Below are positions 1,911 to 2,901 of a DNA stretch of 64,000 nt, piece by piece. The notes under the pieces were generated by a model. That model made no database searches, was not told where the DNA came from, and was given only the letters and a program-made list of their open reading frames with translations. Both the position numbers and the translations under genes were made by a program. Location: positions 4,883 to 68,882 of the forward strand of contig JAQVIY010000002.1 of the NCBI GenBank assembly GCA_028695415.1, given 5' to 3'. This DNA comes from Minisyncoccota bacterium. GTDB taxonomy: Bacteria; Patescibacteriota; Minisyncoccia; Phycocordibacterales; Phycocordibacteraceae. Position 1 is the stretch's first letter, and each line of letters opens with the position of its first letter.

Positions 1911-1982
1911 GCCCCGATAGCTCAACGGATAGAGCAGCGCTCTTCTAAGGCGTTGATGTTGGTTCGATTCCAGCTCGGGGCA
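1911..1982 (+). tRNA. tRNA-Arg (anticodon TCT)
   Basis: Cloverleaf read by eye: acceptor GCCCCGA/TCGGGGC, D arm GCTC-AACGGATA-GAGC, anticodon stem GCGCT/GGCGT with loop CTTCTAA, T arm GTTGG-TTCGATT-CCAGC, discriminator A. No CCA encoded. Confidence 0.8.
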
Positions 1983-1998
1983 CAAAATGCTACGCAGG

Positions 1999-2082
1999 TG
2001 CCGCGAGGGAGACTTGAACTCCCAACCCCTTGCGAGGACTAGCTCCTGAAGCTAGCGTGTTTACCAATTTCACCACCGCGGC
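1999..2082 (-). tRNA. tRNA-Leu (anticodon CAG), class II with long variable arm
   Basis: Reverse complement gives GCCGCGG..TGGTGAAATTGGTAAACAC..CTAGC-TTCAGGA-GCTAG..variable arm..TGGGAG-TTCAAGT-CTCCC-TCGCGGC-A. 84 nt. Confidence 0.75.
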
Positions 2083-2734
2083 GTGCGTTGATTATGCGCA
2101 TAGATTTCATAATCTTCAAATGTTTGCGTCGAAGGCAGGGAAGCCCTTCGCGGTAATACATTGCTTTATATAGCTCTACTGCCTCCCGTTTTGAGTATTT
2201 CAACTGTGCGTATGGTCTGTTTCTGAAATGATTTAAGGAACCCTTTATGCCGATTATGGCTGAGATCTCATTTTGTAGCCACTCCAAATACGCTGGGCTT
2301 CCAGTGATGAAGGAAATATAGAATCGAAAACTCTTTTCAAAGACAGGGTCAAAATAAGAATAACTGCATCCATCGCCATCGAAATATCCTCGTAGGAAAT
2401 CAAAGAAATATTTTTTAGGTATAGAGACGGATGAAATCGTCTTAGATTTCGCGGGGGATAGTCCGATGCTCTGTAAGAATTGATAGAATAGGACATCACC
2501 GAATTGCGTATGATAAGCAAGATTCCCGGTACTTGAATGTTTTTCGCTCGTTTTTGTCTTTATGCTGAGGCATTTCTTGAACAGCGTGATTTGGGGCTTG
2601 TCTTTAGAAGTCAGATCAATATGCCGGCCATCTTTTGAGAGGCATCCATCGGCTGTTAGTAAGCCGATTGCGTATGCAAAATCCGCTGACCACTTAATCT
2701 GTACTTTGCCTCGCGGTTTTGGACCAGGTTTCAT
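2039..2734 (-). mobile_element. free-standing LAGLIDADG homing endonuclease gene (two-motif, monomeric type)
   Basis: Two LAGLIDADG-like motifs (AIGLLTADGC and FLRGYFDGDGCS). Locally lower GC than flanking genes. The 3' end of the ORF runs about 44 nt into the 5' half of tRNA-Leu(CAG). Confidence 0.7.
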
Positions 2735-2828
2735 TGAGCTAATTGTAGCAATAATTCTGTATATAAAGCGTATACCAATTCAGATTGGGGATTGGTGAAT
2801 GGAGAAGAAAGCGGTATTCTCTCAGTAC

Positions 2829-2901
2829 GCACCCTTAGCTCAGTTGGTAGAGCAGCGCATTTACACTGCGAAGGTCGGGGGTTCGAATCCCTCAGGGTGC
2901 A
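2829..2901 (+). tRNA. tRNA-Val (anticodon TAC)
   Basis: Acceptor GCACCCT/AGGGTGC, D arm GCTC-AGTTGGTA-GAGC, anticodon loop TTTACAC, T arm GGGGG-TTCGAAT-CCCTC. One mismatch closing the anticodon stem. Confidence 0.75.

Follow-up and report, generated by a model that had tools for sequence, protein, structure and literature searches.

A LAGLIDADG homing-endonuclease gene joined to the 5' end of tRNA-Leu(CAG) in Patescibacteria: a candidate free-standing cassette with an embedded tRNA promoter

Why should a gene for a LAGLIDADG homing endonuclease run straight into a tRNA gene that contains no intron, and how does that tRNA gene stay in use? The question is raised by a 64,000-nucleotide stretch of contig JAQVIY010000002.1 from a Minisyncoccota bacterium (assembly GCA_028695415.1), here called the window, in which an open reading frame (ORF) of 231 amino acids (aa) lies between tRNA-Leu(CAG) and tRNA-Val and reads into the former (Table 1). 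We consider it rather probable that this gene is part of a free-standing homing cassette that struck tRNA-Leu(CAG) in the region of its anticodon loop and supplies a replacement, promoter-equipped tRNA without any splicing. As reconstructed from sequence comparison, the putative cassette consists of four parts, in gene order: a pseudo 5' half of tRNA-Leu (element A), the endonuclease gene, a promoter embedded in that gene, and a complete tRNA-Leu(CAG) of a differing allele. All conclusions on mobility are comparative.

The endonuclease and its attachment to tRNA 5' ends

The ORF is the only long one between tRNA-Leu and tRNA-Val in the ORF list. It shares the minus strand with tRNA-Leu and overlaps it by 44 nucleotides (nt; 2039-2082, tRNA positions 1-44), so that the 5' part of the tRNA encodes its final 14 codons and its stop; the stop codon TAG (2039-2041) is inside the 3' strand of the anticodon stem. 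The GC content is 0.38-0.43 within the ORF, as opposed to 0.55-0.61 in the flanks. Rfam searches of positions 1850-2960, both at the gathering threshold and at E<=1, returned tRNAs only, by which an intron in this region is ruled out; the ribozyme model RF00028 had no match around the ORF, although the same model does detect introns at two other loci discussed below. The window gene is free-standing, with no ribozyme and no intein, and the joinable exons of an intron-encoded endonuclease are lacking as well. A tblastn search for LAGLIDADG paralogues elsewhere in the window, the insertions of the 23S gene included, found none. An earlier reading made from the letters alone (hereafter the sequence-only reading) had described the two-motif ORF between the two tRNAs, its locally lower GC, the same-strand overlap of about 44 nt with the tRNA-Leu 5' half and its position outside any intron, the flanking tRNAs being contiguous; on all of these points it proved correct. 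It did not describe element A, the embedded promoter, the distinct tRNA allele, the inversion of the unit or the family-wide overlap of ORF and tRNA.

LAGLIDADG homing endonucleases make double-strand cuts in targets of 14-22 base pairs. The protein encoded in the window carries the motifs GLLTADGC (Asp29) and GYFDGDGCS (Asp121) and matches Pfam LAGLIDADG_3 (PF14528) with 35.2 bits (cut-off 22.5); its closest solved relative is I-Tsp061I (2dch), an archaeal rRNA-intron enzyme. A database search gave 2383 homologues, of which the best 120 are 59-73% identical and almost all 216-259 aa long, and come, where a source is named, from Kaiserbacteria, Paceibacteria or Parcubacteria. In an alignment of 27 sequences D29, G30, D121 and G122 are invariant. 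The AlphaFold2 model (predicted local distance difference test, pLDDT, 87.8; predicted template modelling score, pTM, 0.85) has a double alpha-beta-beta-alpha-beta-beta-alpha topology, while the tRNA-encoded tail, residues 219-231, is predicted to be disordered (pLDDT <50). Its top Foldseek matches are I-Tsp061I (E = 6.6e-11), intein endonuclease domains, I-DmoI, I-SceI and I-AniI, and the matches also include WhiA and bI3 maturase. Two acidic motifs, a sufficient profile score and, in the model, a pseudo-dimeric fold are all present, and the product is predicted to be a single-chain, two-motif LAGLIDADG homing endonuclease that presumably cleaves site-specifically. The ratio of nonsynonymous to synonymous divergence (dN/dS) is about 0.1 among closer pairs of loci (0.079/0.765 for L042 vs L043 and 0.154/1.76 for L019 vs L020). 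As the ORF is of full length, keeps both catalytic Asp residues and has this low dN/dS, it appears to encode a functional protein rather than a decaying relic. The suggestion of the sequence-only reading that the ORF could mark the edge of a decayed element is thus not borne out: when frameshifts and catalytic residues were checked, as it had proposed, the ORF was intact, and it is of full length in comparison with the 120 homologues.

The strong purifying selection and the scarcity of pseudogenes would equally fit a domesticated LAGLIDADG factor, i.e. a sequence-specific DNA or RNA binder kept by the host, for example for tRNA regulation or maturation in the manner of WhiA or the maturases, and inherited vertically without mobility. 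WhiA and bI3 maturase are indeed among the fold matches, the position next to the tRNA is rigid with a shared promoter arrangement, and element A, a constrained tRNA-like site over the gene's own promoter, could be an operator. On the other hand, both catalytic Asp residues are invariant, and neither loss of catalytic residues nor uniform vertical conservation was found. We return to this explanation below, where the distribution of the gene is described.

In order to see how general the arrangement is, 80 genome loci encoding relatives were fetched and run through ARAGORN; the taxonomic labels of metagenome-assembled genomes were taken as given, and some of them (Saccharibacteria, Gammaproteobacteria) may reflect mis-binning. 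At 73 of the 80 loci a same-strand tRNA begins a few nt from the ORF end or overlaps the ORF. The seven exceptions comprise three loci at contig ends, one with an inverted tRNA (L005), two (L055 and L066) in which ARAGORN overlooked a tRNA that contains a group I intron (RF00028, 71 and 60 bits), and L072, where an apparent intron-bearing tRNA was recognised by eye only and Rfam at the gathering threshold gave no match. By comparison, none of 80 LAGLIDADG_3 relatives on viral contigs adjoins a tRNA (Fisher p = 1e-37). The identity of the linked tRNA follows the protein subfamily: it is Leu(CAG) at 55-70% identity to the window protein, Leu(GAG) at about 38-55%, Leu(TAG), Leu(TAA) or Cys(GCA) at lower identity, and Asp(GTC) at 32-37%. 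This adjacency by subfamily, along with the empty alleles described below, supports the homing lifestyle aimed at tRNA genes that had been proposed from the sequence alone.

The C-terminal tail RRGGEIGKHASFRS, which is the translated 5' part of the tRNA, is seen again in most of the close homologues. Of 14 related loci of the CAG subfamily, 12 have a distance of exactly 43 nt from the Lys204 codon to tRNA +1; the ORF extends 41-50 nt into the tRNA in 10 of the 14, as in the window, and in 3 it ends at or before the first tRNA bases. Since the tail is missing in these 3 loci and the spacing is fixed, we regard the tail as a by-product of abutment that is probably dispensable, rather than a required part of the protein, and the 44-nt overlap of the window would arise because the ORF abuts the tRNA and meets no stop codon until the anticodon stem. 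One could argue that a stray homing-endonuclease gene merely sits in a tRNA-cluster spacer and that the overlap is chance read-through, and a disordered tail that is missing in 3 of 14 related CAG loci would agree with this. But adjacency at 73 of 80 loci against 0 of 80 viral controls, a fixed 43-nt spacing, an element A with matching anticodon and an embedded promoter that is kept after gene deletion (see below) are hardly compatible with chance, and in practice the comparative data have refuted incidental adjacency already.

A few arrangements in the wider family deserve mention. Tandem modules, in which an endonuclease gene and tRNA-Cys are followed by an endonuclease gene and tRNA-Leu(TAA), are found in L060 (2471-4438) and L067 (3144-4760), and two endonuclease copies stand on either side of a tRNA-Leu(GAG)/tRNA-Val pair in L045 (3223-4853). 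The distant members L055 (4600-4920) and L066 (4620-4900) lie directly 5' of tRNA-Phe or tRNA-Asp, and the introns in these tRNA genes are ORF-less group I introns in the anticodon loop; L072 (about 4630-5000) probably has the same layout, as judged by eye. This suggests that free-standing LAGLIDADG genes could mobilise endonuclease-less tRNA introns of Patescibacteria in trans. The idea of collaborative homing put forward in the sequence-only reading is therefore matched by the layout of the distant members, while for the window itself it does not hold, as its tRNA-Leu has no intron.

A promoter within the gene and a tRNA-like element ahead of it

A promoter scan gave one minus-strand site, with the -35 box TTGAAG (2119-2114), a 17-nt spacer and the -10 box CATAAT (2096-2091), which ends 8 nt ahead of tRNA-Leu +1. 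Such promoter calls are consensus-based, and they are backed here by conservation, codon bias and deletion remnants. The pattern TTGAAR-N17-[CT]ATA[AG]T is found at equivalent codons (Leu206-Lys207 ... Arg213-Ile214-Ile/Val215) in most CAG and GAG loci. The Leu206 codon is TTG in 31 of 36 sequences, compared to a background of 21% (p = 1e-16), and the Ile214 codon is ATA in 30 of 35, compared to 37% (p = 4e-9); this synonymous bias argues for a constraint on the DNA that goes beyond the protein. In L103, L172 and L200 the endonuclease gene is deleted, and the 39 nt from the inverted tRNA-Leu(CAG) to tRNA-Val read TTGAAG-N17-CATAAT-N8. In L177 the GAG copy is deleted and TTGAAA-N17-TATAGT remains right behind the rplS stop codon. 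The promoter is, in other words, the sole remnant in four independently deleted loci.

We predict that a sigma-70-type promoter in the last ORF codons drives tRNA-Leu. As the unit is inverted in the window, its tRNA-Leu would be dependent on this promoter, and the geometry of the CAG subfamily implies that the predicted tRNA transcript has nearly no 5' leader. Production of the tRNA solely by co-transcription with the endonuclease gene and removal of the upstream part by RNase P was also considered, and was demoted once the embedded promoter had been found.

Local alignments and blastn-short searches against tRNAs detect a second tRNA-like segment, element A, on the ORF strand, 5-50 nt ahead of the start codon across loci. 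It spans the D-loop (AATTGGTAKACGC), the 5' strand of the anticodon stem and the anticodon, where the similarity to tRNA stops. In the window it reads AATTGGTATACGCTTTATATACAG and terminates at the anticodon CAG (2759-2757), 22 nt 5' of the ATG. The anticodon of A is always that of the linked tRNA, i.e. ...TTCAG in CAG loci, ...TTGAG in GAG loci and ...TTTAG in TAG loci. Measured against 365 control windows, A is above the 99th percentile in 12 of 14 CAG loci (the window included), 29 of 42 GAG loci and 2 of 3 TAG loci; with the same control it was not detected at TAA, Cys or Asp loci. Between loci A is 78-83% identical and its flanks 28-41%, even where synonymous sites are saturated, and this far better preservation indicates that A is under functional constraint.

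What might A be doing? A TATAAT or TATACT box usually stands directly behind it, and the TAKACG of the D-arm is most often 17 nt 5' of this box, which suggests that A doubles as the promoter region of the endonuclease gene. For the endonuclease gene of the window the consensus scan called no -35/-10 promoter; the TACAAT box (Table 1), noted by eye only, may be the promoter of a leaderless mRNA of this gene. An extra nucleotide after the D-stem is present in 29 of 30 A elements of the CAG and GAG subfamilies, and in none of 81 functional tRNAs. Because it is shared, A was apparently inherited with the cassette and not left afresh at each invasion. We speculate that the extra nucleotide may give optimal promoter spacing, or make A a non-cleavable operator or decoy. 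A does not pair with the downstream 3' half, as the anticodon stem has mismatches and the extra nucleotide intervenes, i.e. the two parts are not exons that join into a functional tRNA.

Alleles of tRNA-Leu, gain and loss of the gene, and what they imply

Two classes of tRNA-Leu(CAG) were distinguished. Class I (GGGCAYG...GGCGGAAYTGGTATACGC...CTCAGAA) is confined to endonuclease-free sites, where it accounts for 19 of 29 genes, and class II (GCCGCGG...GGTGAAATTGGTAAACAC...TTCAGGA) for all 20 endonuclease-associated genes (15 linked, 2 rearranged and 3 deleted loci), class I thus being found in 0 of 20 as compared to 19 of 29 (Fisher p = 2e-6). The tRNA-Leu(CAG) of the window is of class II (GCCGCGG...GGTAAACAC...). 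The A element of CAG loci, in contrast to the linked tRNA, has the class I D-arm GGTATACGC; in L012 it also has a class I-like acceptor strand, which is unable to pair with the 3' end of the downstream tRNA. A comparable relation is seen for Leu(GAG), where the endonuclease-free genes of L112, L159 and L199 (GGCGAAATTGGTAGACG[CT]ACTACCTTGAGG) are equal to the A consensus minus one nucleotide, and the endonuclease-linked tRNAs have varied D-stems. The linked alleles are set apart from the endonuclease-free ones by consistent differences in D-stem and D-loop. By these comparisons, it is the common allele whose 5' half A resembles, the linked, working tRNA being a different allele. The close hosts L021 and L023 (rplS 91% and rluD 75% identical) differ in class, which argues against a purely phylogenetic explanation of the alleles.

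The order Arg(+) Leu(CAG)(+) Val(+) is ancestral, and the three genes often follow each other without spacer (L021 and many metagenome loci). In the window, L002, L025 and L087 the order is Arg(+) [Leu(-) endonuclease(-) A(-)] Val(+), i.e. the unit is inverted relative to the ancestral cluster. In the window tRNA-Arg is convergent to tRNA-Leu at a distance of 13 nt and tRNA-Val is divergent from the endonuclease gene; the deleted loci L103, L172 and L200 are derivatives of this type. A further layout, Arg(+) Leu(+) endonuclease(-), is found in L005 (851-1702) and L159 (6418-7436, Arg-oriented), where tRNA-Leu(CAG) has the ancestral orientation, the endonuclease gene is convergent and the protein tails are like ...IINALKKK. 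As the proteins of L159 and of the window-type L087 are 81% identical, it seems that fairly close relatives can switch from one layout to the other.

L021 and L023 have an empty CAG site, with tRNA-Leu co-oriented with Arg and Val. Among metagenome contigs probed with a tRNA-Arg T-arm pattern, which is independent of the endonuclease gene, about 25-30 sites are empty, 2 are occupied and 3 deleted. The comparison with ORF-less clusters recommended in the sequence-only reading has yielded empty alleles of the exact site, with abutting Arg, Leu(CAG) and Val, in L021, L023 and about 25 metagenome loci; the absence of any empty allele, which that reading had named as counting against it, is thus not what is observed. 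In the GAG subfamily the order rplS, A, endonuclease gene, tRNA-Leu(GAG) is found in about 35 loci; the GAG site of the window is unoccupied (36-nt spacer), L021 and L023 are occupied at GAG and empty at CAG, and L025 carries both. Presence and absence are thus polymorphic at a fixed locus. Distances between endonucleases correlate poorly with those between hosts (Spearman 0.28 for rluD and 0.10 for rplS, as compared to 0.52 between rluD and rplS).

These data also bear on the domesticated factor considered above. A patchy distribution in which two tRNA sites are occupied and empty in reciprocal fashion, a phylogeny that is poorly congruent with that of the host, and a GC content some 15-20 points under the flanks all speak against it, as do the loci in which the gene is deleted with promoter and tRNA kept, which imply that the protein is dispensable. 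Taken together we consider domestication unlikely.

In L103 (about 590-830) and L172 (about 620-860; both in Arg-oriented coordinates), which have lost the LAGLIDADG gene, tRNA-Arg(TCT) and the inverted tRNA-Leu(CAG) enclose a small GIY-YIG-like ORF (MHYIYLLQDEQGKLYVGYSGDLKKRIQDHK...); L200, another such locus, has a truncated copy of it. This tRNA cluster is possibly a hotspot of selfish nucleases.

How could the homing cassette have come about and how would it spread? We propose that its entry point was the anticodon loop of a resident tRNA-Leu gene, or the bases directly behind this loop, the type of site used by tRNA group I introns, and that the loss would have been compensated by a second, promoter-equipped tRNA gene instead of by splicing. 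The resident 5' half would survive as A, now overlapping the promoter region of the endonuclease gene, and A may serve as promoter, operator or homology arm. The enzyme would cleave endonuclease-free tRNA-Leu(CAG), probably in the block from D-arm to anticodon-arm that is kept in A, and spread by break repair, with the linked tRNA allele resisting cleavage. For cleavage of the endonuclease-free allele with co-conversion of flanking markers, the difference between linked and free alleles is indirect evidence. We further speculate that RNase P cleavage removes the stop codon from those transcripts that start at the endonuclease promoter and run on into the tRNA, which may limit the amount of enzyme.

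Alternatively, the locus could be what is left of a mobile group I intron in the anticodon loop of tRNA-Leu: the ribozyme would have been lost, the gene rescued by a duplication of the tRNA, and the ORF retained in an immobile state. The end of A at the anticodon, position 36/37 to 38/39, falls into the site class of tRNA group I introns (PMC13011429), and related subfamilies adjoin tRNA-Phe and tRNA-Asp genes with such introns. Yet no intron model matches even at E<=1, A with its extra nucleotide is unable to base-pair with the 3' half downstream, and the ORF, which has been gained and lost among relatives, is under purifying selection. As an account of the present locus we hold this to be quite unlikely; it may instead account for how the cassette arose, and would then not be in conflict with what the cassette does now.

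Several points weigh against the homing cassette proposed here. Cleavage and target site are presumed from comparison. The split between linked and free alleles could partly mirror host phylogeny, since the loci are not independent samples. The linked tRNA of L020 has an anticodon arm of the endonuclease-free type, which argues that immunity would not lie in the anticodon arm alone and that allele comparison does not localise the target. Degenerate copies, about 2-3 among the 80 loci, are fewer than a classical homing cycle would lead one to expect. No 3'-half tRNA relic specific to occupied sites was found, and the viral relatives in IMG/VR, searched for a carrier, reach at most 38% identity and none of them adjoins a tRNA. 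Finally, the apparent inheritance of A with the cassette is unexplained by a simple relic model, even though its anticodon still matches that of the linked tRNA.

Repeats of the tRNA 3' end downstream of the tRNA (L001, L016, L021, L062) were considered as such a relic and are not diagnostic, as similar ones occur at the endonuclease-free sites of the window, L112 and L159. In the window an ORF-poor, lower-GC region 3' of tRNA-Leu(GAG) (5103-5716) has tRNA 3'-end copies, an inverted one at 5126-5152 and direct ones at about 5198-5235 and about 5300-5318; the copy at 5198-5235 is common to L021 (4911-4948). L112 and L148 likewise have an inverted 3'-end copy, 31-32 nt downstream.

A more far-reaching version can be put forward tentatively, and we would rate it as possible and no better than that: a 'cleave-and-replace' drive, in which class I tRNA-Leu(CAG) is cut and repaired by the cassette with its resistant, promoter-equipped allele, the sister subfamilies doing likewise for Leu(GAG/TAG) and mobilising ORF-less tRNA introns in trans, and A being a non-cleavable copy of the recognition site that is reused as promoter or operator. 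Such a drive would lead to turnover of tRNA alleles across Patescibacteria and would leave resistant endonuclease-free sites after loss of the gene.

Table 1. Coordinates of the features of the locus within the window
Feature	Position	Strand	Basis and remarks
tRNA-Arg(TCT)	1911-1983	+	ARAGORN and Rfam; first gene of the ancestral Arg-Leu-Val cluster
tRNA-Leu(CAG)	1997-2082	-	ARAGORN and Rfam; contiguous, complete alone
LAGLIDADG homing-endonuclease gene (predicted)	2039-2734	-	ORF list; 231 aa, ATG start
Predicted tRNA-Leu promoter in ORF codons 206-215	2091-2119	-	Promoter scan
TACAAT, -10-like box	2742-2747	-	By eye; 7 nt 5' of the endonuclease ATG
Element A, pseudo 5' half of tRNA-Leu	2757-2780	-	Local alignments and blastn-short vs tRNAs
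tRNA-Val(TAC)	2829-2902	+	ARAGORN and Rfam; last gene of the ancestral cluster
tRNA-Leu(GAG)	5020-5102	+	No endonuclease gene 5' of it; rplS ends at 4983

The window has other unusual RNA genes. A tRNA between the 23S and 5S genes (50811-50887; Rfam tRNA, 58 bits) has an 8-nt anticodon loop (CUUUCAAA), for which ARAGORN gives the four-base anticodon 'ttca'. A 102-nt tRNA-like gene at 52736-52837, found by Rfam only (39.9 bits) and not called by ARAGORN, has an odd D-arm and extra internal sequence. The 23S rRNA (47063-50606) is 3544 nt long as compared to the 2925-nt model, so it contains about 600 nt of insertions. The rRNA coordinates are 47063-50606, 52424-52537 and 63276-64000, the 23S and 5S genes being about 11 kb upstream of the 16S gene, which is not the usual 16S-23S-5S operon order.

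Comparison with known systems

Homing endonucleases are thought to persist in essential genes under the cover of self-splicing introns or inteins. The cassette suggests a third solution for RNA genes, namely a replacement copy equipped with a promoter. In the literature searched we found no description of LAGLIDADG genes fixed to tRNA 5' ends in bacteria of the candidate phyla radiation (CPR), and the two papers nearest to the subject deal solely with tRNA group I introns (PMC13011429) and rRNA insertions (PMC11270868); the cassette, widespread in Patescibacteria, is apparently undescribed. If our reading is true, it would explain the allele turnover and rearrangement in the tRNA clusters of Patescibacteria, offer candidate trans-acting mobility factors for the many tRNA introns of the phylum that have no endonuclease gene, and provide a family of hundreds of natural meganucleases, with the adjoining tRNA indicating the likely target of each. 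It is also a warning for annotation, as pseudo-tRNA halves and ORFs running into tRNA genes are to be expected.

It is useful to compare the general features of the locus to other systems in which nucleases or recombinases meet conserved genes. In collaborative or trans homing a free-standing endonuclease acts with an ORF-less group I intron in the target (F-CphI/psbA, mobE/nrdB). The distant members L055 and L066, and probably L072, share this layout, with an ORF-less intron in the adjoining tRNA. The window differs in that tRNA-Leu has no intron, and both protection and compensation are apparently obtained via the second tRNA copy or allele. Elements of the integrase type insert into tRNA genes and restore the gene via a 3'-end copy that they carry. 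Like these, the proposed cassette has a conserved tRNA gene as landing site and preserves its function by carrying a duplicated tRNA segment; the enzymes are however different, a tyrosine recombinase in one case and a LAGLIDADG nuclease in the other, and the geometry is mirrored, as integrase elements use the 3' end while the cassette would involve the 5' side, or the whole gene with its promoter.

A second group of relatives is found among intron and insertion enzymes. LAGLIDADG endonucleases occur in rRNA insertion sequences of CPR bacteria (PMC11270868). These, as well as I-Tsp061I and I-DmoI, have superfamily, fold and conserved structural-RNA gene targets in common with the window enzyme, and the former come from the same host group. 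At the same time, the rRNA-insertion genes lie inside the rRNA gene in an excised insertion, whereas the window gene is outside the mature RNA. Group I introns in tRNA anticodon loops are also close in some respects; they include the 35/36 introns of Patescibacteria and cyanobacterial tRNA-Arg(CCU) introns, which encode LAGLIDADG enzymes (PMC13011429). Most tRNA introns have no endonuclease gene, and adjoining free-standing ones are not described in that work (PMC13011429). The host phylum is the same, and the presumed insertion point of the cassette, the end of A, lies within the anticodon loop or directly behind it; the differences are the ribozyme and splicing of the introns, and the family of the enzyme (PF03161 as opposed to PF14528 in the window).

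The nearest parallel is perhaps the 'intronless homing' of the free-standing endonucleases of phage T4. Here embedded promoters for displaced host genes are known, as in SegG with the gene-32 promoters, and SegB sits in the T4 tRNA gene region and targets the tRNA cluster (PMC2988022). In T4 Seg/Mob as in the window, the gene is outside any intron or intein, between host genes, and is present or absent among relatives, and the promoter of the downstream essential gene is inside the endonuclease ORF, by which deletion is penalised. The underlying enzymes and hosts are different, as those of T4 are GIY-YIG or HNH nucleases on phage genomes, while the window enzyme is a predicted LAGLIDADG nuclease on cellular chromosomes of Patescibacteria. 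Unlike its T4 counterparts, the window gene is fused base-to-base to one tRNA, flanked by the pseudo 5' half of that tRNA, and linked to a distinct allele.

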